Below, piece after piece: positions 122 to 37,115 of a stretch of DNA of 64,000 nucleotides. Within the stretch, counting starts at the first letter, position 1, and each line of letters begins with the position of its first letter. The DNA is from a virus: the IMG/VR virus record IMGVR_UViG_3300042691_026427, positions 1 to 64,000 of that record, one strand, 5' to 3'. The position numbers and the translations under genes were made by a program. Below the pieces are notes generated by a model that saw only the letters and a list, made by a program, of their open reading frames with translations, was not told where the DNA came from and did no database searches.

Positions 122-196
122 TGGTACCGGATGCGAGATTCGAACTTGCGACCAACGCCTTATCAAGGCGCTGCTCTACCACTGAGCTAACCCGGT
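122..196 (-). tRNA. tRNA-Ile(GAT)
   Basis: cloverleaf, loop TT-GAT-AA, GTTCGAATC T-loop, CCA. Confidence 0.95.
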
Positions 197-205
197 ATTC
201 AATCT

Positions 206-280
206 TGGCGCCCACATATGGAATCGAACCACAATCCCCGGTTTCGTAGACCAGTGTATTATCCATTATACTATGCGGGC
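206..280 (-). tRNA. tRNA-Arg(ACG)
   Basis: cloverleaf, CT-ACG-AA, CCA. Confidence 0.95.
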
Positions 281-287
281 AAAATCT

Positions 288-362
288 TGGTGGAAGCCGA
301 GGGAATCGAACCCTTCTAGTCAGCAACCTTGCAAGGGTTACCCGTAGCCCACTACTGCTCCC
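288..362 (-). tRNA. atypical tRNA-Ala(TGC) with minimal D arm
   Basis: CT-TGC-AA loop, G3:U70, T-loop, CCA; D arm only GUAG-UGGG-CUAC. Confidence 0.75.
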
Positions 363-470
363 AATTAAGAAACACACTACATCCAGCGAACCCATCTGCT
401 GGCTTAGTTATTAATCGCTACAGGATAACCGGAATCCTTCGCTGAGGCGTCAGTAATGTGTTTGTTAATT
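363..470 (-). ncRNA. unannotated structured RNA in the tRNA array
   Basis: ends pair over ~18 nt (AAUUAACAAACACAUUAC / GUAGUGUGUUUCUUAAUU); internal CCAGC/GCUGG hairpin. Confidence 0.55.
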
Positions 471-548
471 GGCTCCGTGTGTGAGGATCGAACTCACCTA
501 ATCACTGATTAACAGTCAGGTCCTTGCACCATGCTTGGATTTCACGGA
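470..548 (-). tRNA. tRNA-Asn(GTT)
   Basis: CT-GTT-AA, T-loop, CCA. Confidence 0.9.
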
Positions 549-557
549 ATAGAAAAT

Positions 558-633
558 TGGCGCCACAGACGGGAATCGAACCCGCCTAAATCGGATAGAC
601 AATCCGGTGCCCTACCCAGAGGACTACTGTGGC
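558..633 (-). tRNA. tRNA-Asp(GTC)
   Basis: TT-GTC-TA loop, T-loop, CCA. Confidence 0.9.
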
Positions 634-641
634 ATTAAACT

Positions 642-717
642 TGGCGCCCCGTAGGGGTTTCGATCCCCTTACCTCAGCAGTGACAGTGCTGTGCTCTCCC
701 GATTGAGCTAACGGAGC
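642..717 (-). tRNA. tRNA-Asp(GTC)
   Basis: CT-GTC-AC, CCA. Confidence 0.92.
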
Positions 718-721
718 ATGA

Positions 722-775
722 ATTACGAGCTTGTAGACTAAACTACAATTTACCGGTTTCTAGACGAACTCATAA
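722..775 (-). ncRNA. small structured RNA in the tRNA array
   Basis: closing stem UUAUGAGU/GCUCGUAA; inner UUGUAG/CUACAA hairpin. Confidence 0.45.
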
Positions 776-778
776 ACT

Positions 779-865
779 TGGTGGAGACAACTGGAGTCGA
801 ACCAGTAGTGCCTTTCGGGCGGAAGATTTACAGTCTCCTGGGGTTACCAATTTTCCTACATCTCC
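779..865 (-). tRNA. tRNA-Tyr(GTA)
   Basis: CT-GTA-AA, long variable arm, CCA. Confidence 0.95.
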
Positions 866-867
866 AA

Positions 868-948
868 ATGAAACATGCTAAAAGGGATCTAGTCCACCAT
901 TGGCACTAAGTGCAGGGGGCAGGCTAAAAGGGATCTAACACATTTCAT
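868..948 (-). ncRNA. rod-like RNA with a symmetric internal loop
   Basis: 15-nt direct repeat GCTAAAAGGGATCTA (877-891, 923-937) inside a ~13-bp closing stem. Confidence 0.6.
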
Positions 949-953
949 AAACT

Positions 954-1028
954 TGGTACTCCGAACGGGTATCGATCCCGCTTCTCCAACTTGAAAGGCT
1001 GGTGTCCTAGCCACTAGACGACCGGAGT
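954..1028 (-). tRNA. tRNA-Glu(TTC)
   Basis: CT-TTC-AA, CCA. Confidence 0.93.
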
Positions 1029-1032
1029 AAAA

Positions 1033-1144
1033 TTCTTATACAACTGCACACTCACAGGAGTCGAACCTGCCTACCCAGGACTTGCCCGAGCTGTAATCCG
1101 CTACATTAGCGTGGCCTACGCCTTTATGTGCATGTGTATAAGAA
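1033..1144 (-). ncRNA. tRNA-like RNA with a T arm and extended closing stem, no CCA
   Basis: GCAGG-UUCGACU-CCUGU T arm; UUCUUAUACA/UGUAUAAGAA and UGCACAU/GUGUGCA stems. Confidence 0.6.
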
Positions 1145-1160
1145 CTTCTTATACAATAAA

Positions 1161-1190
1161 TTTTTAAAGAACAGTGTTAATTTCTTAACA
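1161..1190 (-). promoter_or_regulatory. rrn-like boxB-boxA antitermination signal
   Basis: UGUUAA-GAAA-UUAACA hairpin followed by UGUUCUUUAAAAA just downstream of a promoter. Confidence 0.7.
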
Positions 1191-1197
1191 TGTGTAT

Positions 1198-1226
1198 ATT
1201 GTAACATGGTTTTGCCACTTTGTCAA
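1198..1226 (-). promoter_or_regulatory. internal sigma70 promoter of the tRNA array
   Basis: TTGACA-17 nt-TACAAT. Confidence 0.85.
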
Positions 1227-1268
1227 TAGTCTTTGCAACTATTTTTTGTTGTATTTTTACAACAATTT

Positions 1269-1353
1269 TGGTGCCTTTGACTGGACTCGAACCAGCACGC
1301 CTTTCGGCACAGCGACCTCAACGCTGCGTGTCTACCAATTCCACCACAAAGGC
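1269..1353 (-). tRNA. tRNA-Leu(GAG)
   Basis: TT-GAG-GT, long variable arm, CCA. Confidence 0.95.
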
Positions 1354-1363
1354 TTTTTATATT

Positions 1364-1440
1364 TGGTACCCCGTGTCTGATTCGAACAGACAACCAACTC
1401 CTTTTGAGAGAATCCGCACTACCAATTAGCGTAACGGGGC
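1364..1440 (-). tRNA. tRNA-Leu(CAA), short variable loop
   Basis: CT-CAA-AA, 5-nt variable loop, A73, CCA. Confidence 0.85.
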
Positions 1441-1449
1441 ATTTAATTT

Positions 1450-1527
1450 TGGTGCGGTGAACGGGATTCGAACCCGTACTGTACAGATTTTAAGTCTGTT
1501 GCCTCCTACCTATTGCGCTACCACCGC
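1450..1527 (-). tRNA. tRNA-Leu(TAA), short variable loop
   Basis: CT-TAA-AA, 5-nt variable loop, A73, CCA. Confidence 0.88.
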
Positions 1528-1536
1528 GATGTAAAA

Positions 1537-1650
1537 CAGGATACCTTTTTCGATGGCGTGTAAGCCATTGCTCTACCATTGAGCGATCTACGCAAAAGCG
1601 TGGAGTTGGAATCGAACCAACGTGTCGTTAGACATTGCTGTATGTATCCT
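1537..1650 (-). ncRNA. YrlA-like circularly permuted tRNA mimic (CAGCA-motif RNA A)
   Basis: AGGAUAC/GUAUCCU closing stem + CAGCA; T arm, loop-closed acceptor stem, D arm, anticodon-like arm in permuted order. Confidence 0.8.
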
Positions 1651-1658
1651 AAAACTTG

Positions 1659-1734
1659 TGGTGCCATAGACTGGACTCGAACCAGTAACACACGAATTTT
1701 CAGTCCGCTGCTCTACCATTGGAGCTACTATGAC
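1659..1734 (-). tRNA. tRNA-Phe(GAA)
   Basis: CT-GAA-AA, CCA. Confidence 0.95.
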
Positions 1735-1745
1735 ATAAACTTATT

Positions 1746-1819
1746 AGGGGTGACTATCGGGATTTGAACCCGAACTACCAGAGTCACAGTCTAGGTTGCT
1801 ACCATTACAACATAGCCAC
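1746..1819 (-). tRNA. tRNA-His(GTG)
   Basis: CT-GTG-AC, G-1; 3' end CCT (CCA not fully encoded); flanks pair (ACTTATTAGG/CCTAATAAGT). Confidence 0.9.
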
Positions 1820-1837
1820 ACCTAATAAGTCTAAAAT

Positions 1838-1911
1838 TGGCAGGGGTAGTAGGGATCGAACCTACACTCTCAGAGTCAAAGTCTGATATGCTACCATTAC
1901 ATAATACCCCA
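1838..1911 (-). tRNA. tRNA-Gln(TTG)
   Basis: CT-TTG-AC, U1:A72, CCA. Confidence 0.95.
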
Positions 1912-1920
1912 ACAAAATAA

Positions 1921-1976
1921 CAGGATGCTTATTTTTCAATTAAAAGTTGAATTTTAAAAATTGCTGAACGCATCCT
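1921..1976 (-). ncRNA. CAGCA-motif RNA B carrying a Lys(UUU) anticodon stem-loop
   Basis: AGGAUGC/GCAUCCU-G stem, GUU-CAGCAA, inner UUCAA-CUUUUAA-UUGAA. Confidence 0.75.
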
Positions 1977-1981
1977 AAAAC

Positions 1982-2057
1982 TGGTACATCGTGTAGGGAT
2001 TGAACCTACGACCTACGCCGTGTAAAGACGCCGCTACTACCGCTGAGCTAACGATGC
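1982..2057 (-). tRNA. tRNA-Val(TAC)
   Basis: TT-TAC-AC, CCA. Confidence 0.95.
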
Positions 2058-2063
2058 ATAAAT

Positions 2064-2139
2064 TGGTCTCCGTACTAGGATTCGAACCTAGACCTTACCG
2101 CCCCAAACGGCAAGTGCAACCTGATAACACTTTACAGAG
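2064..2139 (-). tRNA. tRNA-Pro(TGG)
   Basis: TT-TGG-GG, C1:G72, CCA. Confidence 0.93.
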
Positions 2140-2146
2140 ATGAAAT

Positions 2147-2220
2147 TGGCGTACCTCCAAGGACTCGAACCTTGACTGACGGTTTTGGAGACCGCGATGC
2201 TGCCATTACACTAGAGATAC
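2147..2220 (-). tRNA. tRNA-Trp(CCA)
   Basis: CT-CCA-AA, CCA end. Confidence 0.95.
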
Positions 2221-2229
2221 ATTATTAAA

Positions 2230-2283
2230 CAGGCTTCGCTTTTTTTCATTTACAGTGAAATTTAAATTTGCTGAAAGAAGCCT
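2230..2283 (-). ncRNA. CAGCA-motif RNA C carrying a Tyr(GUA) anticodon stem-loop
   Basis: AGGCUUC/GAAGCCU-G stem, UUU-CAGCAA, inner UUUCA-CUGUAAA-UGAAA. Confidence 0.75.
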
Positions 2284-2289
2284 AAAACT

Positions 2290-2375
2290 TGGAGGATAGA
2301 ATCAGAATCGAACTGATACCCATTTCTGAGTAGATCGGTTTAGCAAACCAACTTGTGCCCAGCACACTACTATCC
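2290..2375 (-). tRNA. tRNA-Ser(GCT), atypical D arm
   Basis: TT-GCT-AA, long variable arm, CCA; compact D region. Confidence 0.8.
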
Positions 2376-2382
2376 ATAAAAT

Positions 2383-2456
2383 TGGTGCCCCATGACAGAA
2401 TCGAACTGCCGTAACCTGATTACAAAACAGGTGTAATACCATTATACTAATAGGGC
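2383..2456 (-). tRNA. tRNA-Thr(TGT)
   Basis: TT-TGT-AA, CCA. Confidence 0.95.
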
Positions 2457-2461
2457 AAAAT

Positions 2462-2536
2462 TGGCTCCTCAGACTGGGATCGAACCAATGACCGATCGGT
2501 TAACAGCCGATTGCTCTACCGCTGAGCTACTGAGGA
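2462..2536 (-). tRNA. tRNA-Asn(GTT)
   Basis: CT-GTT-AA, canonical arms, CCA. Confidence 0.96.
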
Positions 2537-2544
2537 ATAAAACT

Positions 2545-2622
2545 TGGAGTAGCGGGTGAGATTTGAACTCACGGTTTTACGGATTTGCAATCCATTGCAT
2601 TGGGCCTCTCTGCCACCGCTAC
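2545..2622 (-). tRNA. tRNA-Cys(GCA)
   Basis: TT-GCA-AA, U73, CCA. Confidence 0.95.
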
Positions 2623-2631
2623 ATAAAAACT

Positions 2632-2705
2632 TGGTAGCCAGTCCACGAATTGAACGTGAAATTTCCGCTTATCAGGCGAATGTTATTCCATTTAACTAAC
2701 CGGCC
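2632..2705 (-). tRNA. tRNA-Ile(GAT)
   Basis: CT-GAT-AA, CCA. Confidence 0.9.
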
Positions 2706-2714
2706 AGTTATTTC

Positions 2715-3116
2715 TTACCACTCTGCGTATTCACTTATCATACGAGAGTTTGTATCTTGTCTTTTAGTAGATTCTACACAACGAAGTTTAACTTCTTTCA
2801 CATCACATATTGCTGTAATAGGAATAAGATATACTTTATCTAATTCGTTTACATAAACTGCTAAACAATCAATGTTACTTTCGTTGTAAGAAACTCTATT
2901 AGTGAATGTGTTTTGCGATAGTTTGATTGTAACTACACCGTTACTTTCCAACGATCTAAACTTAACTTGAACTCTTAAAAGTGTCCCATCATGTTTATCT
3001 AACACATAATCATAAGGACAACCTTGAGGCATCTTGCCAGTCCAGTACCCTCGTTTAGCAGAAGCAAGCACAAATGCTGCTTCTCCTATTTCACCTTTTT
3101 CATTTGATATACTCAT
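2715..3116 (-). CDS. free-standing PD-(D/E)XK homing-type endonuclease (I-Ssp6803I/PDDEXK_5-like)
   Basis: KGEIGE...PYDYV...RVQVK motif; AGGAG SD before the ATG at 3116. Confidence 0.8.
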   Translation of the reverse strand: MSISNEKGEIGEAAFVLASAKRGYWTGKMPQGCPYDYVLDKHDGTLLRVQVKFRSLESNGVVTIKLSQNTFTNRVSYNESNIDCLAVYVNELDKVYLIPITAICDVKEVKLRCVESTKRQDTNSRMISEYAEW

Positions 3117-3172
3117 AGTGTTTCTCCTATGAGTAGTTATAACACTCGCCAGGAAAGCGGGCGATAATAAAA

Positions 3173-3237
3173 CAGGATACTTTGTGTCGCTAGACAACCA
3201 AAAAGTTTAGCTAATTTGAATTTGCAGAACGTATCCT
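3173..3237 (-). ncRNA. CAGCA-motif RNA D (CUGCA variant)
   Basis: AGGAUAC/GUAUCCU-G stem, GUU-CUGCAA. Confidence 0.65.
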
Positions 3238-3244
3238 AAAACTA

Positions 3245-3319
3245 TGGTGGACCGTCGGGGGATCGAACCCCGACCTGAGACGTGCAAAGCCCCCGTGCTC
3301 CCATTATCACTAACAGCCC
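3245..3319 (-). tRNA. tRNA-Ala(TGC)
   Basis: TT-TGC-AC, G3:U70, CCA. Confidence 0.95.
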
Positions 3320-3324
3320 ATAAT

Positions 3325-3411
3325 TGGTGGAGTGTGATGGAATCGAACCACTTGGCGCCACCCTACTTGTTAGGCCTACCGGGTTACAGCCGGCAATAGG
3401 GAACACACTCC
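3325..3411 (-). tRNA. D-armless tRNA-Tyr(GTA)-like RNA
   Basis: acceptor GGAGUGU/ACACUCC-A-CCA, CU-GUA-AC loop, T loop; no D hairpin. Confidence 0.7.
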
Positions 3412-3417
3412 AATTTG

Positions 3418-8721: not shown

Positions 8722-10483
8722 TTATATAATCAAATTATTAGAACAAAAGGGCGTTGATACAGCGTTTTGTATCACAGGCGGAGCAGCAGCGCATTTAATC
8801 GAAAGTCTTCGTATCAGCGATATGCAAGTTTTTCACAACTATAACGAACAAGCCTGCGCTATGAGTGCTGATGGGTATGCTCGTATTGCCAAAAAGCCAG
8901 CACTAGTCATGGTCACTAACGGACCAGGTAGTAGTAATGCTATTACCGGAGTATTAGGTGCGTGGCAAGACAGTGTTCCGATGATTGTGTTGAGCGGTCA
9001 AGTGCCGAGGCATCAAACACTTGCAGCCGAAGTTAGATCATTACGTCAATTAGGATTACAAGAAGCTGATATTATCAGCATGGTCAAACATTGTACCAAT
9101 CATGCTGTTCAGATAACACAGACAAGTAACATCAAACAAGAAATAGACAAAGCCTGGCACTTGGCAACTAGCGGTCGTATGGGGCCCGTTTGGTTAGACA
9201 TTCCTATCGATATTCAAGCAGAAATAATCGAAACTGATGACCAGTTAGAATATGTAATAGAAGCTGTTGATACTCGTGTTCACTCCATCGAAGGTATTGT
9301 TACTGCAATAAAGAATTCTAAGAAACCTTTGATAGTTGCAGGTAACGGTATTCATTTAGGCAATGCTGAAAATGAATTTTTACAATTAGTAAATCAATTA
9401 CAAATTCCAGTTGTAGCAACATGGAATGCCAAAGATCTTTTTAATTCAGATGACGACTTGTATGTTGGTAATTTCGGATTGCTAGGTGAAAGAGCTGCTA
9501 ACTTTGCTATTCAACAAGCAGATTTGTTAATTGTACTGGGCAGTAGATTAAGTATTCCTGTAACTGGATATAACACAAAAGACTTTTCTCCTAACTCTAA
9601 GAAGATCATGGTTGACTTAGATGAAAATGAAATACTTAAACATACATTAACTATCGATTATCCTTATGTTGGACATGTAAAAGATTTTATTAATGATATA
9701 AAAGACATTATCGAACCATCAAAGAGGCAGCTTTGGAATAATACCGTTAAAGGATGGAAAGAAAGATTTCCAGTGTTTAGTGAAAATCATGTTCGTGCCG
9801 ATGGTTTCGTTAACAGCTTTGATTTTATGCAGCATTTAAGTAATGCCATGCGACCAGATGATGTAGTAGTAACTGACATGGGAACTAGTTTTACTTGCAC
9901 TATGCAATCTTTGCAGCATACAGGCAAAGACAGACTGTTTACCAGTAGTGCTTTGTGCAGTATGGGATTTGGTTTGCCCGGAGCAATCGGCGCATATACT
10001 GCTAACGCTAATAATCGTGTAATTTGTATTGCAGGAGACGGTGGATTCCAAATGAACATTCAAGAGCTGCAAACTGTAGCTCAATACAATTTACCAATTA
10101 AAATTATTATCTTAAACAACGACGGATATCTAGCAATCAGTCTAATGCAGGATAATTTGTTTAATGGAAATCATTTTGGTGCAACTAGTGCTAGTGGTGT
10201 AGGAAGTCCTAAGTTTGTTGAATTGAGCAAAGCATATGGAATTCCTGCATATAAATTAAAAACTATCACAGATGTTAAAAATAATTTGGCTTTCTTGTTA
10301 AGTGAGTCAGGACCTTGTTTAATTGAAATTAACATGGTAAGAAACCAATTGTTAATTCCTCGTGTTCAAAGTAAACGAGATGCTTCTGGAAAGATTGTCA
10401 GCGGAAGCATAGATGCTATGTTTCCATTTTTAACAGATAAAGAAATAGACCAAGTATTAACTGAAAGCCGTAGTTGTGAATAA
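8702..10483 (+). CDS. TPP-dependent acetolactate-synthase-like enzyme (YerE-like)
   Basis: EQAC..ADGYAR, TNGPG, GDGGFQMNIQEL..NN; located in an NDP-sugar operon. Confidence 0.85.
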   Translation: MKIKVSDYIIKLLEQKGVDTAFCITGGAAAHLIESLRISDMQVFHNYNEQACAMSADGYARIAKKPALVMVTNGPGSSNAITGVLGAWQDSVPMIVLSGQVPRHQTLAAEVRSLRQLGLQEADIISMVKHCTNHAVQITQTSNIKQEIDKAWHLATSGRMGPVWLDIPIDIQAEIIETDDQLEYVIEAVDTRVHSIEGIVTAIKNSKKPLIVAGNGIHLGNAENEFLQLVNQLQIPVVATWNAKDLFNSDDDLYVGNFGLLGERAANFAIQQADLLIVLGSRLSIPVTGYNTKDFSPNSKKIMVDLDENEILKHTLTIDYPYVGHVKDFINDIKDIIEPSKRQLWNNTVKGWKERFPVFSENHVRADGFVNSFDFMQHLSNAMRPDDVVVTDMGTSFTCTMQSLQHTGKDRLFTSSALCSMGFGLPGAIGAYTANANNRVICIAGDGGFQMNIQELQTVAQYNLPIKIIILNNDGYLAISLMQDNLFNGNHFGATSASGVGSPKFVELSKAYGIPAYKLKTITDVKNNLAFLLSESGPCLIEINMVRNQLLIPRVQSKRDASGKIVSGSIDAMFPFLTDKEIDQVLTESRSCE

Positions 10484-11297
10484 AATTGCAGTATTAGGCG
10501 CTAACGGATATATTGGTCGATATCTTGTTGAAAATTTAACTACTGATGGTTACGAAGTATTGCCTGTAACTAGGTCCGAGTTGACATTAACTAATACTCA
10601 GCAGGTTAAGAATTGGTTAGAAAAATACAGACCATATGCAATAATCAACTGTGCGTCTTCTGTGTCAATTACAGGCGTTCGAGAACACAATGTAAACTTT
10701 GATGATCTGCAAAATAATATCAATATTTTTCTTAATTTTTATTATCACAGTGATTTGTTTTCAAAATTTATCAACATCGGAACCGGTGCTGAGTTTGATA
10801 AAACAAGAAGTATTACAGAAATAACAGAAACCGAACTTACAAAATCATTTCCTACTGAAACTTATGGATACAGTAAAAATTTAATTTCAAGATTTGTTTT
10901 AGAAAAAGAAAAATTTTACACACTAAGACTATTTGGATGTTTTGATAAATCAGAACCCACTGCTCGACTGTTTCAACAATTGCAAATCAAAGATCAAGTT
11001 ACTATTGAAGATAAACAATTTGATTATATTAGTGCTCGAGATTTCTATAAGGTATTAAATCATTACTTAAATAATAATGTAGAACACAAAGATATCAATT
11101 GTGTATATTCAAAAAAGTATATGCTTAGTGAAATTGCAAATATGTTTAAAGAATATCACAACTTACCAGTAGACATTGTTATATCGGGTATTGGTAAAAA
11201 TTACTCAGCATGTGGAAAGAAACTATCGCAATTGGCAATAGCATTAGATGGATTAGAAAAATCCATCAAGAGTTATAACGCTAATAGTTTGATTTAA
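10476..11297 (+). CDS. NAD-dependent epimerase/dehydratase
   Basis: GANGYIG, YGYSK. Confidence 0.85.
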   Translation: MNKIAVLGANGYIGRYLVENLTTDGYEVLPVTRSELTLTNTQQVKNWLEKYRPYAIINCASSVSITGVREHNVNFDDLQNNINIFLNFYYHSDLFSKFINIGTGAEFDKTRSITEITETELTKSFPTETYGYSKNLISRFVLEKEKFYTLRLFGCFDKSEPTARLFQQLQIKDQVTIEDKQFDYISARDFYKVLNHYLNNNVEHKDINCVYSKKYMLSEIANMFKEYHNLPVDIVISGIGKNYSACGKKLSQLAIALDGLEKSIKSYNANSLI

Positions 11298-32495: not shown

Positions 32496-32740
32496 AAGAA
32501 TTTCCCAATGTATTCAACAGCCAACTGCTCTTCAGCAATAATTTCTGCATTCCACCGCAGTGCCATTACCAGTGCATCTTTATTACTTTTAAAAACAAAG
32601 TCCATATAGTTGACATTGGCGTGGGTTTGAAATCTGTCCCCAGGCAACCCAAAATATTCGATTGCCCAGGCACAGACTTCATTCCAGTAGGTGTCGTTAT
32701 CGTACTCTCTTGTCCAGGATATGCGAACTGTTGATCTCAT
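32492..32740 (-). CDS. small paralogous-family protein
   Basis: WAIEYFG..FVFKSNKDALVMALRW. Confidence 0.7.
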   Translation of the reverse strand: MRSTVRISWTREYDNDTYWNEVCAWAIEYFGLPGDRFQTHANVNYMDFVFKSNKDALVMALRWNAEIIAEEQLAVEYIGKFL

Positions 32741-33549
32741 ACTTCAAAATACTGTCCAGCTAGAAATCCGTTGTCTTCTTCCCAGGGAATATATCCACGT
32801 GGGTTGCAAACAACACGAGTATCACCGACCATATAGTCTACAGGATCATGAACATGCCCATGCACCCATACTTTAATGTTGGGATTGTCCAAAATCAAGT
32901 TAGACAGATCCGAAACATAAGCACCATTGCTCAACTCGCCTTTATATTTGTCATTGATACTCATATAAGTTGGACCCATGTGAGTGATCACTACTACTGG
33001 CATGTCAGCATACTGTTTGGCCTTTTCTTCAATGTAACGCTTGCTCTCGATGTGCATGTTGACAGTATCCATAGGACGCATCTTGTGGTATGCGTTGTAC
33101 TGGGGATAATGAAAAGTGATAGCCTTGTAGTCGTTCATATAGTTCTGCATAGAGTGCAAGGTTATAGGGTCACCTTTGTTCATATCAGTCCACAAAGTGG
33201 CACCAATAAAAACTACACCTTCGTAGACTTCGCACTGATTTTCCAGCACGGTTATATTCTTTGGCAACACACGTTCTAGTTCAGCTTTGGTTTTCCAAAA
33301 CTTTCCACGATAATGTTCGTGGTTTCCCATAACGTAAAACACTTTTTTATATTTTGCACACTCGAATTCAAAGAAGTCATAGCAGGGAAACTTGCCGCCA
33401 GTGTACGGCAACTCTTTGGTGCTGTGATGTTCGTGAACTAACTCGCGAGCTTCGCAAGCATCGCCCGCAACAATAAGAACATCTCCGCCAGGTAGCTCGA
33501 GATGTTTACTGATATCCAAATGCAGGTCTGATAAGAATTGTATGTTCAT
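32737..33549 (-). CDS. calcineurin-like metallophosphoesterase
   Basis: SDLH, AGD, GNHE, HGHVH; promoter TTGACT-17-TATAAT at 33556-33584. Confidence 0.9.
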   Translation of the reverse strand: MNIQFLSDLHLDISKHLELPGGDVLIVAGDACEARELVHEHHSTKELPYTGGKFPCYDFFEFECAKYKKVFYVMGNHEHYRGKFWKTKAELERVLPKNITVLENQCEVYEGVVFIGATLWTDMNKGDPITLHSMQNYMNDYKAITFHYPQYNAYHKMRPMDTVNMHIESKRYIEEKAKQYADMPVVVITHMGPTYMSINDKYKGELSNGAYVSDLSNLILDNPNIKVWVHGHVHDPVDYMVGDTRVVCNPRGYIPWEEDNGFLAGQYFEV

Positions 33550-33612
33550 AGAGTTATTATACATGATTTTTATTTAAAAGTCAAGCCACAAAAAAAGAGC
33601 CAATGGGCTCAT

Positions 33613-33835: not shown

Positions 33836-33863
33836 TATAAAAAATGGGGCACTAAGGCCCCAT
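33836..33863 (-). terminator. terminator after the DUF2828 gene
   Basis: ATGGGGC/GCCCCAT stem + T run. Confidence 0.75.
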
Positions 33864-33870
33864 AAACACA

Positions 33871-35268
33871 TTAAGCAATTACGCTGTAACGTGGACTGTT
33901 TAGTGTCGCCAACATTACGTTGGTTGGATCTAAATCTTCTGCCTTCAAGATTGAAGTCATGATGCTTGGGCTGAACCCAGACACCAATGCAACTCCCTTC
34001 TTGTCGAACTTGACTGGACTTTGTCCCGCCTTAGCGTTCAAGTTCCAGAATACAATGTTTGGCACAGTGTATCCTGCTTCGGCAAACTTACGTTCGATCA
34101 TTTGCATAGCAGAGTCATCGTGACGAGCACATTGATCAAACTGCATATCACTCATGATCAGAACATACTTTGGCATGTCGTTGGCACTAACACCACCTGC
34201 CTTGGCAACACGCAACACTTCTTCAAATGCGGCGTTTAGGTTAGTGTTCATGTCCCAATCTGCTCGTTGCAACTGTGCCAACTTGCTGGTCAAGTTACCC
34301 TTCAAGATTTCGATCTTGCTCTTTGCAGAGAAAGTCAAAAACATGTCCTTGAATGGACCAGTGTTCTTGTCAGCGAGGTACAGGCCCAAGCTAACGCAAA
34401 CGTCCATACAAGTCAAGTTGGCGTTTCCACCAACTGGGCAGCTCATAGAGCCCGATACGTCACACATTGGTAACACCAGTTCATCACCGATGTAGTTTGG
34501 CAATGCATCCCATTGGGCTTGCATTACAGTGGCATCGCCGCCAAACTTGTTGCTCTTGATGACATCGTAAGGGTAAACAGCCGAAGCGTTTACCTTTGCT
34601 TCACCAGTAACCAACTTGCCCTTGTAAGCTTCATACCCTGCGGCATCGTGCTTCTTAAAGGCCTTTTGGTAACGTGCAGCCGCAAGCGACGGCACATGGC
34701 TATAGTTGATGTTGGTCCAGTCGTTGGCACACATGTTCTGTTCCACAGTCTTGCTCAAAGAGACAAGGCTCTTACGGTAAAACTTTGGGCTCATTCCGAA
34801 GAATGTGCGGATTTCTGCGGCCAATGCACCCTGACGTGGCATCCACTTTGCAGCCAGGCCGTTACGTTCACGAAGAGCGTCACCGATTAGGGTAAATGCC
34901 TGTGCCTTTGCTTCCTTAGAAGTAAAGATCAACAGGTCATCCCAACGACCAAATTCTGCAAGGTGAGGGATCAAACGAGCCAACGCCTTAGGGTTAGTCT
35001 TTTCAAGATTCAAAAGAATCTTACGCACGACTTCACGTTCGCCTGCGCCACCACGGACGTCACGTGCCCACATCAAAAGACGTAGGGCCAGTGTTTCGTC
35101 CTGTGCAAGGGCACGGGCAAATTGGGTGCTCAAGTCCTTACCACGGCTTGCGCCAATAGTGAAGAACAGATCAACAAGATCGCTCTTGCTGGAATCGAAA
35201 GTCTTCATACCGTTATCGGTACGGACAGTCTTAGGTACGGTCTTAACCGCTTGAACAAATGCGTTCAT
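33871..35268 (-). CDS. DUF2828-family Ro60/TROVE-like helical-repeat + vWA protein
   Basis: TDNG..LVDLFF, ARDVRGGAGER, GRWDDL, AAKWMPR, YSHVPS, MIDAS DVSGSM, IVFWNL, LVSGFSP. Confidence 0.85.
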   Translation of the reverse strand: MNAFVQAVKTVPKTVRTDNGMKTFDSSKSDLVDLFFTIGASRGKDLSTQFARALAQDETLALRLLMWARDVRGGAGEREVVRKILLNLEKTNPKALARLIPHLAEFGRWDDLLIFTSKEAKAQAFTLIGDALRERNGLAAKWMPRQGALAAEIRTFFGMSPKFYRKSLVSLSKTVEQNMCANDWTNINYSHVPSLAAARYQKAFKKHDAAGYEAYKGKLVTGEAKVNASAVYPYDVIKSNKFGGDATVMQAQWDALPNYIGDELVLPMCDVSGSMSCPVGGNANLTCMDVCVSLGLYLADKNTGPFKDMFLTFSAKSKIEILKGNLTSKLAQLQRADWDMNTNLNAAFEEVLRVAKAGGVSANDMPKYVLIMSDMQFDQCARHDDSAMQMIERKFAEAGYTVPNIVFWNLNAKAGQSPVKFDKKGVALVSGFSPSIMTSILKAEDLDPTNVMLATLNSPRYSVIA

Positions 35269-35321: not shown

Positions 35322-35327
35322 ATACAA

Positions 35328-35564
35328 CAGGATGGGTGGAACCGTAATATTTTTTCTGGCCAACTTTCCCCAGTATATCGGTTCAGTTCCTTGGCCCTAT
35401 CCTAACTTGTGTCTGCGTTAGAAAACATATATGTCTTTCCATAAGTCGTCAGTTCCATTAGTGTTATAGTTTATACATTTCTGTATTCCTACTACAGCCT
35501 TTCCACGGGCCACTGTCTACTGCATTTACGGCTTTAGTATTGTTTAAATTGCTGAATCCATCCT
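35328..35564 (-). ncRNA. CAGCA-motif RNA E2 (~240 nt)
   Basis: AGGAUGG-AUU-CAGCAA...CCAUCCU-G; inner GCCGUAA/UUACGGU helix. Confidence 0.75.
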
Positions 35565-35573
35565 AGGATTTAA

Positions 35574-35737
35574 CAGGTTAGTTGTTGACTGCTTTTATTT
35601 TACTCAGGCCATCACTCTGAGCTTGTTGGTCTATTTCAATAGCTACCTTCACAGCACTTGGGCGAACCTTTGTGCTCCAGCGGACTACCATAGGGTCCAA
35701 CGATCCATAGTAATATGAATGTTGCTGTACCTAACCT
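35574..35737 (-). ncRNA. CAGCA-motif RNA E3 (~165 nt)
   Basis: AGGUUAG-GUA-CAGCAA...CUAACCU-G; several inner hairpins. Confidence 0.75.
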
Positions 35738-35761: not shown

Positions 35762-35790
35762 ATTATATAGTAACTTAATTATCTTGTCAA
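35762..35790 (-). promoter_or_regulatory. sigma70 promoter of the E3-E2-E1-DUF2828 unit
   Basis: TTGACA-17-TATAAT. Confidence 0.88.
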
Positions 35791-35817: not shown

Positions 35818-36588
35818 TTATACACGAATTCCATAAGTTACTACTTGCCACTTATATCCATTCCAGCGACTGTTAACTTTCATTAACGAATTACGTCGAA
35901 TGTCATGAAAAATTGGCACACCTTTTACATCAAAAATCATGCTGTCAACTAGATTAAAAAAGCTACTGGCAACACAATGAATTTCAGATGCATTTTCAAT
36001 GAGCTTTTTATATTGCAACATGTTCTCCGCTTGCCCTGGGCGTACTTCGATAATTTTTTTTGGCTCGAGTCCCCTAGCAGCTCTGTATGTAGGAACATCG
36101 ATAGCAATACCTTCTGGATGATCACTGGCATATCGATGTACCAAAATGTAATCATCAACACCTTCAGTTAACCAAGTGTATAGTTCGTCTGAACCTGTGA
36201 TAGTTTTGGGCATGTGAAAATCTAGATATCTCATTTTGTATGGAATATCCCAATTTTCATATAATTGCTGTTGCCAATGTATTTGTATCTGTTCTAATTC
36301 GCAACCTTTTCTATCAATTTCTTGAGTAATTAAAGGCAAACTTTTTAGATGAATAATATCTGGATTGGCCGTTAAAAAAACATCTTCTTGATCATTGCTG
36401 TAGAATCTCCAAACTTCAATATTTGGATAATCTTGATATAAACATTTGAGTGTTTCAAAATATTCACCTCTAGCCGGATAGTACAATTTTTTGCACATCC
36501 TTGCATAGTGATGCACAATAGGACTCATTACAAATGCATCACCTAATCCTACGCATCTATCAAAAAATAATTTATTAAATTTTGTCAT
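35818..36588 (-). CDS. glycosyltransferase-like protein
   Basis: GLGD, LIENASEIHCVASSF. Confidence 0.55.
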   Translation of the reverse strand: MTKFNKLFFDRCVGLGDAFVMSPIVHHYARMCKKLYYPARGEYFETLKCLYQDYPNIEVWRFYSNDQEDVFLTANPDIIHLKSLPLITQEIDRKGCELEQIQIHWQQQLYENWDIPYKMRYLDFHMPKTITGSDELYTWLTEGVDDYILVHRYASDHPEGIAIDVPTYRAARGLEPKKIIEVRPGQAENMLQYKKLIENASEIHCVASSFFNLVDSMIFDVKGVPIFHDIRRNSLMKVNSRWNGYKWQVVTYGIRV

Positions 36589-37115
36589 TTTTGCCGAATT
36601 TTTAATTTAGTATAAATGTTTTGCACTCCGACGGCCTGGCGAATAGCATCTTGCAAGGCATCGTGTTTACTGCCTTTTGGCATATCAGGATCATATCCTA
36701 GATCAAACAATGTGCGAGTATCACGCAGTTGCCAAAAATTCCAAGGCAAAGGCTTGTTTAATTGTCGATAGATATTTTCAATAATGACCAAGTCGAAGGT
36801 AGCACCGTGACTCCAAAATGCATCACAGCCCCAGGCGAACTTATGGAACTGATCCATAGCATCCACTAACGAAATACGATTGTCCGGACTAAATGCTTCT
36901 TCCATAACTACTGGATCTTGCTTACTCCACCAATCAATTGTGTTGGGATCTATTTCTCTGCCCAACTTGTCTTGATCATCGAGGTCAATACGGAAGTACA
37001 GTTTATCTCCGTATCCGTTGCCCCAGGGATTGAAATGTACAGCACCTAGGCTAAGAACTACTGCGTTTGGGGAAACTGCCATAGTCTCCATATCGATCAT
37101 AAGATGTTTTGTCAT
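36585..37115 (-). CDS. DEDDh 3'-5' exonuclease (exonuclease VIII/RNase AS-like)
   Basis: MIDMET, WSHGATFD, RDTRT, HDALQDA. Confidence 0.85.
   Translation of the reverse strand: MTKHLMIDMETMAVSPNAVVLSLGAVHFNPWGNGYGDKLYFRIDLDDQDKLGREIDPNTIDWWSKQDPVVMEEAFSPDNRISLVDAMDQFHKFAWGCDAFWSHGATFDLVIIENIYRQLNKPLPWNFWQLRDTRTLFDLGYDPDMPKGSKHDALQDAIRQAVGVQNIYTKLKIRQK

Follow-up and report, generated by a model that had tools for sequence, protein, structure and literature searches.

The Ro60/Rsr proteins and their Y RNAs form a system that includes the bacterial and mycobacteriophage RNAs YrlA and YrlB (Chen et al. 2014, PMC4201824; Rfam RF02553), and a Ro60 is also described from Thermus phage phiLo (PMC12135203, PDB 9l5y). 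YrlA's tRNA-like domain has been proposed as a possible competitive inhibitor of an anticodon nuclease (Hughes et al., PMC7790460). Phage tRNAs act against such nucleases as well, the documented cases being T5 tRNA-Tyr and retron-Eco7, T5 tRNA-Lys and PARIS, and tRNA-Lys and PrrC (PMC11555353, PMC11464382, PMC10264068). The short Class I RNAs of dictyostelids bind the RRM protein CIBP and have been reported from no other organism (PMC7919456). Here we describe two mini-RNAs, B and C, encoded in the tRNA array of a viral contig (IMG/VR record IMGVR_UViG_3300042691_026427). Each carries a look-alike of an anticodon stem-loop, and both are probably, judging from genomic linkage, partner RNAs of a Ro60-like protein with DUF2828 and DUF7788 domains encoded on the same contig (the DUF2828 protein). 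What we refer to as the window is the opening 64 kb of this 149-kb contig.

RNA B (57 nucleotides (nt), 1920..1976, minus strand) and RNA C (55 nt, 2229..2283, minus strand) correspond to two gaps between the called tRNAs of the minus-strand array, B between tRNA-Val and tRNA-Gln and C between tRNA-Ser(GCU) and tRNA-Trp. They share one frame with four further minus-strand elements of the window (RNAs A, D, E and F): AGG-N4, three bases, C(A/U)GCAA, a cargo that varies, seven bases complementary to those at the start, and GU(U). The closing stems vary in sequence among the six copies while complementarity is kept. This frame, which we call the handle, reads AGGAUGC + GUU-CAGCAA, cargo, GCAUCCU-GU in B and AGGCUUC + UUU-CAGCAA, cargo, GAAGCCU-GU in C. 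Within the cargo of B lies UUCAA-CUUUUAA-UUGAA (1935..1951, minus strand), a mimic of the Lys (UUU) anticodon stem-loop; that of C contains UUUCA-CUGUAAA-UGAAA (2244..2260, minus strand), a mimic of Tyr (GUA). A sequence-only reading of the window had described both as 5-bp stems with 7-nt C32-U33-NNN-A37-A38 loops displaying UUU and GUA, and its sequences and coordinates proved exact. The hairpins have the hallmarks of a tRNA anticodon arm, namely a 5-bp stem, a 7-nt loop with U33 and a purine at position 37, and a frame that stays fixed while its triplet varies. They are not part of a tRNA cloverleaf: B and C lack acceptor stem, D arm and T arm, and neither ARAGORN nor Rfam RF00005, even at E-values up to 10, calls a tRNA in them. 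No handle RNA of the window or its relatives matched an Rfam family at or above its gathering score, and a BLAST search of cultured phages with the window start and RNA B as queries returned only tRNA matches or noise.

To estimate how general the mimicry is, we used 188 unique mini-RNA cargos from related phages, drawn from a combined set of 368 unique handle RNAs with size classes of ~50–69, 110–120, 160 and 230–250 nt. A 7-nt CU-NNN-AA loop closed by 4 bp or more was found in 90 of the 188 cargos, compared to 1.9 ± 1.3 (maximum 6) in 200 dinucleotide-preserving shuffles; thus, the mimicry is not a matter of chance, and the enrichment that the sequence-only reading had put forward as a check is present. 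Under a looser U33/R37 rule (R, purine) there were 119 such mini-RNAs versus 16 in shuffles, and the CU-NNN-AA share is also about one half among the 41 minis that come from protein-anchored loci alone. The mimic stems are 5 bp long in 75 of the 90 cases and 4 bp in the other 15, never longer, while 10% of such hairpins in shuffled cargos reach 6 bp or more. All four Watson-Crick types are in use at pairs 29-41 and 30-40, the loop CUUUUAA occurs on eight different stems among homologs, and the anticodon arm begins 9–10 nt past CAGCAA in 54 of 90 cases. The triplets resemble genuine bacterial anticodons, the counts being UUU (27), UGU (20), UCU (9), UGA (8), and GCA, GUA, GGA and GUU (5 each). 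Adenine occupies position 34 just once in 96, versus a 46% share of A among cargo bases.

The frame around the triplet is rigid. Among 33 near-identical pairs of RNAs there were no differences at positions 32-33 and 37-38 (0/132), versus 12 in the triplet (12/99), with switches between UUU and UGU (on two scaffolds), GUA and GUU, UGA and CGA, and UGU and CGU. RNA C itself has a near-identical RNA in another phage with the anticodon GUU instead of GUA, and its stem-loop recurs on another handle in relative G002. Relatives G001 and G002 have orthologs of RNA B with identical cargo. Had the loops of homologs varied at random in length and sequence, the sequence-only reading would have taken this as a sign of AT-rich chance hairpins; the 5-bp rule and the constant frame show that they do not. 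When a mini-RNA was compared to its cognate full tRNA from the same locus, the 7-nt loops were identical in 76 of 112 pairs, while the AU-only mimic stems had 0–6 of 10 positions in common with the GC-rich tRNA stem. Since the stems bear no relation to those of tRNA anticodon arms, the mimics are not recent tRNA remnants. An origin as chance AT-rich hairpins or decayed tRNA genes could invoke the composition of the mini-RNA cargos (76% A+T) and the absence of predicted hairpin stability, but it is opposed by the ~50-fold enrichment over shuffles, by covariation in the stems, and by the retention of RNA B among phages whose proteins are 84–87% identical, and we find it barely credible. Taken together, these comparative counts show the hairpins to be selected look-alikes of anticodon stem-loops in which only the loop is copied.

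The handle RNAs are linked to a single protein gene. In 80 IMG/VR loci anchored on DUF2828 homologs (54–88% identity) plus the contig, the handle scan returned 165 matches versus 2 in reversed-sequence controls, or 460 versus 3 when pattern-derived loci were included, and in 156 of 158 cases the handle lay on the strand of the DUF2828 gene. A handle RNA ends no more than 800 nt upstream of the DUF2828 start in 63 of the 69 loci that have enough upstream DNA for the distance to be counted, with a median gap of 78 nt. When the collection was scanned with an RNA-only pattern, at least 119 stretches were found, and the loci derived in this way are dense tRNA arrays. Ten large contigs were chosen from these matches, and DUF2828 is encoded in each of the five that are complete genomes and in four of the other five, which are fragments, against a background rate of 1.4% among cultured phage records. 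The scan accepts only perfect 7-bp stems, and a fixed GGAUNC stem was used in one search of the collection; the cargo is constrained by neither rule. Specificity of the handle was judged by the reversed-sequence control rather than by swapping 7-mers, an uninformative test of stem closure (381 of 654 observed versus 264 in the control) given that stems are shared and GU-tolerant 7-mers often close in AT-rich DNA. The association with DUF2828 implied in the sequence-only reading is thus borne out, both from the protein side (63/69) and from the RNA side (9/10), and the positional data show linkage of the RNAs to the DUF2828 protein gene.

The protein in question (465 aa; 33871..35268, minus strand) is composed of DUF2828 and DUF7788 (PF11443, PF25043) and contains the vWA metal ion-dependent adhesion site (MIDAS) motif DVSGSM. 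A search of the whole contig with the TROVE hidden Markov model (HMM; PF05731) gave no match, while Deinococcus and Bacteroides controls did match; a sequence search of PDB with the DUF2828 protein returned nothing significant, and a literature text search on ‘DUF2828’ found no paper on the function of the protein. A single-sequence AlphaFold model was discarded (predicted local distance difference test (pLDDT) score of 43.7), and the model used was built on a 100-sequence alignment (pLDDT 95, predicted template modelling score (pTM) 0.92). With this model, the best 13 Foldseek matches in PDB were all Ro60/TROVE proteins, aligned over the full length (E-values from 1e-9 to 8e-5, TM-score up to 0.67) and originating from Xenopus, human, Deinococcus (Rsr) and Thermus phage phiLo; plain vWA domains scored far lower. 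The model has the architecture of Ro60, in which a ring of alpha-helical repeats precedes a vWA domain with MIDAS, and the DVSGSM motif (DxSxS) is unchanged in homologs from phages through eukaryotes. Because the top structural matches are all Ro60 and the MIDAS motif is invariant, the DUF2828 protein is, as modelled, a divergent Ro60-type ring protein.

The family is large, with 6,252 representative clusters at 50% identity. It was found in 711 of 50,697 cultured phage records (1.4%), among them Felix O1-type coliphages, Listeria, Staphylococcus and Campylobacter phages, and mycobacteriophages, and a search restricted to longer proteins revealed eukaryotic homologs in plants, fungi, a diatom and EukProt transcriptome entries. 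In the window the gene appears to be transcribed together with two of the handle RNAs. A promoter-like site, TTGACA-17-TATAAT (35762..35790, minus strand), agrees with the consensus at 12 of 12 positions and lies 25 nt upstream of RNA E (165 nt; 35573..35737, minus strand; AGGUUAG + GUA-CAGCAA ... CUAACCU-GU), the first unit after this promoter. RNA F follows (238 nt; 35327..35564, minus strand; AGGAUGG + AUU-CAGCAA ... CCAUCCU-GU), 58 nt upstream of the DUF2828 start codon, and a terminator-like hairpin with a T run (33844..33863, minus strand) stands immediately 3′ of the stop codon. Promoter, RNA E, RNA F, DUF2828 gene and terminator are, by this layout, a single predicted unit.

In function, the nearest known counterpart is Ro60/Rsr with YrlA/YrlB. 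The two systems have in common a ring and vWA protein of the same fold (here taken from a predicted model), small RNAs encoded beside its gene on the same strand (RNAs E and F, and the upstream RNAs of related loci), several RNAs per protein, RNA ends joined in a closing stem with a conserved 5′-strand motif, and a permuted tRNA-like module on at least one RNA per genome. In the window this last feature belongs to RNA A (115 nt; 1536..1650, minus strand), which consists of the handle and a cargo with a T arm, an acceptor-like hairpin, a D arm and one further hairpin; its fold z-score is –3.6, and it aligns to the full Rfam YrlA model at 29.6 bits (E-value 0.0017). This is below the gathering score of 69, as is the best relative (48.9 bits), and B and C do not match the YrlA model. 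Unlike Ro60, the protein escapes the TROVE HMM and is filed as DUF2828 and DUF7788. Unlike in Y RNAs, the handle motif is (U/A)CAGCAA, while the Ro motif is GGUCCGA in vertebrates and GNCGAAN0-1G in bacteria (Chen et al. 2014, PMC4201824), and many handle copies reside in tRNA arrays tens of kb from the gene. Finally, about half of the minimal members bear a bare anticodon arm, the sole part of a tRNA that YrlA lacks.

The explanation that we prefer, and hold with moderate confidence, is that B and C are Y-RNA-like partners of the Ro60-shaped protein whose displayed loop titrates proteins that read anticodon loops, host nucleases being the leading candidates. B and C would be two of at least six phage small RNAs serving the DUF2828/vWA protein as analogues of Y RNAs. 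The handle, with its closing stem, the unpaired NNN-CAGCAA inside the 5′ strand and the 3′ CCUGU, would most likely be the protein-binding site, and we infer that handle RNAs physically bind the DUF2828 protein. The protein would stabilise them, as Ro60 does for Y RNAs; such binding of the handle could explain how the RNAs are stable despite weak internal pairing. The cargo would then show parts of tRNAs, which in A is a whole permuted tRNA-like module and in B (Lys UUU) and C (Tyr GUA) just the anticodon arm. Placed 9–10 nt from the handle on a 5-bp stem, the arm would present a 7-nt loop copied from a real tRNA, its triplet being swapped between phages. The protein-held loop would engage proteins that read particular anticodon loops, in the first place host defence nucleases that cut tRNAs, which would be titrated or blocked alongside the replacement tRNAs of the phage itself.

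Taken alone, the role of nuclease decoy is speculative and somewhat doubtful. It plausibly fits the fact that Lys UUU is the commonest loop and that Tyr is present; the nuclease targets named in the sequence-only reading agree with published ones, PrrC and AriB of PARIS acting on tRNA-Lys and PtuAB of retron-Eco7 depleting tRNA-Tyr. It would also plausibly account for the switching of triplets between near-identical RNAs and for the patchy choice of anticodons, with one to three displayed per phage. Hughes et al. had already suggested possible inhibition of this sort for YrlA (PMC7790460), which agrees with such a role. As with the phage tRNAs that counteract nucleases, B and C are encoded in phage tRNA arrays, their anticodons are Lys UUU and Tyr GUA, and specificity resides in the anticodon stem-loop. 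Unlike these tRNAs, which are complete and functional and either take the place of the cleaved host tRNA or survive it, B and C lack the D arm, the T arm and the CCA end and are unchargeable.

Full tRNAs are found beside the mini-RNAs. The same mini-Lys RNA occurs together with a full tRNA-Lys(UUU) in relatives G001, G002 and G005; elsewhere among the relatives a mini-Tyr coexists with tRNA-Tyr, a mini-Ser(UGA) adjoins tRNA-Ser(UGA), and a mini-Cys adjoins tRNA-Cys. Since minis and cognate tRNAs coexist in relatives, the minis, as far as gene content can tell, accompany full tRNAs and do not replace them. A cognate tRNA was present in the same partial locus for 100 of 141 minis, versus 85 ± 4.4 expected by label shuffling, an excess that the decoy role could plausibly accommodate. 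Direct adjacency of a mini to its cognate tRNA was not significant (10 observed versus 6.8 ± 2.3). In relative G002 (99% complete), the loop of the tRNA-Lys(UUU) called by ARAGORN is an odd AUUUUCG, and the mini-Lys keeps the canonical CUUUUAA; the former may be a miscall, or else an anticodon loop altered in the way that has been proposed for escape from nucleases.

Co-occurrence with cognate tRNAs above expectation would also suit adaptor RNAs, the main rival, in which cargos made of tRNA parts recruit modification enzymes, anticodon-binding domains of aminoacyl-tRNA synthetases or exonucleases to the Ro60-like ring, and the ring takes part in the quality control, decay or repair of tRNAs from phage or host. 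The Ro60 fold and the known tethering by Y RNAs speak in favour of this, as a Deinococcus Y RNA tethers Rsr to PNPase, and so does the range of cargos, which besides anticodon loops includes whole tRNA-like modules and non-anticodon classes. In Escherichia phage phiSUSP1 the DUF2828 gene directly precedes a tRNA array. Furthermore, nearly all displayed triplets have U36 or A36 followed by A37. These are the contexts in which N6-threonylcarbamoyladenosine (t6A37) and N6-isopentenyladenosine (i6A37) are made in bacterial tRNA modification. However, AT-rich composition by itself favours U or A at position 36, a gene for a 3′-5′ exoribonuclease is nearby in close relatives only, and single-base switching of triplets, together with the patchy one to three anticodons per phage, fits an arms race better than housekeeping. 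On balance we regard adaptor RNAs as possible but doubtful.

A number of observations weigh against titration by a displayed loop. The isolated 17-mers of B and C have a folding energy of 0 kcal/mol in the nearest-neighbour model, and minimum free energy (MFE) folds of the full-length RNAs pick other pairings; since these energies give the hairpins no support, the anticodon arm of B and C, if formed, probably needs protein, ions or modification. AriB of PARIS recognises the anticodon stem and cuts at 40/41, and the stems of the minis are unlike tRNA stems. PrrC is reported to prefer modified bases. If it acts stoichiometrically, a decoy would face competition from the abundant tRNA of the host and so would need high abundance. 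About half of the mini-RNAs hold cargo other than anticodon mimics, and for this reason the general role of the family must be wider than anticodon display. No RtcB or Rnl2-type RNA ligase was found in the 149-kb contig. A calcineurin-like metallophosphoesterase (32737-33564, minus strand) and an Rv2179c-like 3′-5′ exoribonuclease (36585-37115, minus strand) flank the DUF2828 unit, but these genes and ClpX are neighbours in only the 14–16 closest of the 80 DUF2828 loci. A conserved DUF2828 gene neighbourhood was therefore rejected, and because neighbours are kept in close relatives only, genomic context otherwise gives no pointer to tRNA damage. Nor is the set of handle RNAs an unbiased census, since the scans demanded a perfect 7-bp stem or the fixed GGAUNC.

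The absence of tRNA-Lys, on which the sequence-only reading had leaned, also loses its force as an argument for a decoy. The absence as such is real: none of the 23 tRNAs called by ARAGORN in the window is tRNA-Lys, nor is any of the 25 in the whole contig. But in three relatives the mini occurs together with the full tRNA. The first base of the contig falls inside the tRNA array, and since the contig begins there and relatives hold mini-Lys together with tRNA-Lys, the missing tRNA-Lys is probably explained by contig truncation. CheckV estimates completeness at ~44%, which makes the source virus a jumbo phage with a genome of some 340 kb.

A variant of the decoy would have the loop serve as bait or sensor, meant for cleavage, the cut altering the ribonucleoprotein (RNP), for example by freeing the ring or vWA domain, and so triggering a phage response. 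The evidence of mimicry and triplet switching applies here too, and weak AU stems would separate once cut. However, no effector domain was found beyond the ring and vWA, and no conserved downstream partner gene; this purely conjectural scheme is in our view very unlikely.

Among the cargos that are not anticodon mimics are the class to which RNA D belongs, another whose 9-nt loops are of the ACUUAUAUC type, and A32 variants. RNA D (66 nt; 3172..3237, minus strand) has CUGCAA in place of CAGCAA, and its cargo belongs to a conserved GCUAAACUUUUUGGUUGUCUAGCGACA class without anticodon mimic, represented by eight unique homologs with differing handles. In many other non-anticodon cargos a CUUUU/AAAAG stem bears UUGG(U/A)A, perhaps in imitation of a D loop.

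Among described RNAs, the closest look-alike is the dictyostelid Class I RNA (Rfam RF01414; Kjellin et al. 2021, PMC7919456). Class I RNAs are 42–65 nt long with an end-joining stem of ~6 bp, which compares to 57 and 55 nt and 7-bp stems in B and C. Both kinds have an unpaired motif ending in CAGCAA after the 5′ strand (with C6, C9, A10 and A11 invariant), an AU-rich variable interior, an (A)AG start and a CUGU end (CCUGU in B and C). B and C align to the full RF01414 model with 30.7 and 28.6 bits, respectively, and the best relative with 36.5, below the gathering score of 41.5. The phage RNAs differ in that linker and motif are one base shorter and that they lack the DUSE promoter, found ~60 nt upstream in dictyostelids, being flanked by tRNAs in a phage tRNA operon. 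A pull-down with the Class I RNA DdR-21 recovered four proteins, including the uncharacterised DDB_G0281243 (PMC7919456). No DVSGSM/FWNL-type protein was seen in the examined part of the dictyostelid proteome supplements. The most far-reaching reading would join all of this into one widespread RNP built on a Ro60 paralog (more than 6,000 protein clusters, in phages of many bacterial hosts, with related DUF2828 proteins among eukaryotes and with handle RNAs on giant-virus-labelled contigs). Its universal handle and exchangeable anticodon loops would make programmable, protein-held inhibitors of tRNA-cutting immune nucleases, and Dictyostelium Class I RNAs would be the eukaryotic branch, partners of a DUF2828-type protein for which DDB_G0281243 is a candidate. 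As a whole, we judge this reading unlikely.

The tRNA array that houses RNAs A–D is dense, with 22 ARAGORN tRNAs between 122 and 3412 on the minus strand (122..3412); the 23rd tRNA of the window is located at 12.9 kb. RNAs A–D fill tRNA slots, each beginning ~5–6 nt past the CCA of the upstream tRNA. Such spacing (CCA, 4–6 nt, AGG), from which normal tRNA processing would release them, could mean that handle RNAs are operon punctuation, that is, processing or spacer elements such as RNase entry sites or folding insulators, with the anticodon-like hairpins as by-products. Yet copies are also found away from tRNAs before the DUF2828 gene, the RNAs co-occur with this gene across unrelated phages, and a strict loop frame and 5-bp rule would be useless in a spacer, which makes punctuation highly improbable, slightly more so than the bait or sensor.

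Other features of the array stand apart from the handle RNAs. A gene for a PD-(D/E)XK endonuclease (160 aa, PF11645; 2715-3197, minus strand) lies between tRNA-Ile and RNA D and looks like a mobile or homing nuclease insertion. Three tRNA-like elements on the minus strand (3325-3412, 480-558 and 1040-1130) are not called by ARAGORN: one combines a GUA loop with a long extra arm and a CCA end, its score against the Rfam tRNA-Sec model being 29.2 bits, another has a CUGUUAA loop and a T arm, and the remaining one shows a T arm of GGUUCGACUCC. All three may be tRNAs of an unusual or re-wired kind. Two gaps on the minus strand are structured without a CAGCAA handle, one (866-953) closed by AUGAAAUG/CAUGUUUCAU with UAGAUCCCUUUUAGC twice inside, the other (363-480) with a closing stem of ~12 bp. 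Outside the window, a cluster of TTATCCACA repeats with the DnaA-box consensus (G000:C1:143714-143773) was the sole false positive of the handle scan in the contig; it adjoins tRNA-Met and tRNA-Leu (143.2–143.4 kb) and could be an origin-like region.

Handle RNAs were also seen in other genomes. In phiSUSP1, a phage of E. coli K-12 (NC_028808.2), the DUF2828 gene, annotated as an RNA-binding protein, stands immediately before the tRNA array, in which four handle RNAs are found (9717-9775, 9876-9932, 10332-10402 and 10422-10542). Their form is AAGACC...(U/A)CAGCAA...GGUCUGG, and one of the four contains a T arm/D arm module. A relaxed handle scan of this genome gave mainly noise, and only the four array copies are credible. 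Three contigs labelled GVMAG (giant virus) have tandem handle RNAs, two or three each (L111, 13801-13951; L135, 4932-5122; L137, 18-168); these are near-identical copies of 62–74 nt whose cargo has no anticodon mimic.

This analysis adds the statistics of the anticodon frame, the 5-bp rule, the copying of the loop only, the coexistence with cognate tRNAs, and the lead to DDB_G0281243. The handle RNAs account for unannotated gaps in phage tRNA arrays, and their likeness to Class I RNAs offers a testable route toward the mechanism of the latter. With its DUF2828 gene and four handle RNAs, phiSUSP1 is a tractable laboratory model. If our explanation is true, the large uncharacterised DUF2828 family would gain a function and a class of ligands, and anticodon-loop display would give experimental access to the purpose of the tRNA-like modules of Y RNAs. 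The known answers of phages to tRNA-targeting immunity are tRNA replacement and tRNA repair; the display of swappable bare anticodon loops may be a third.

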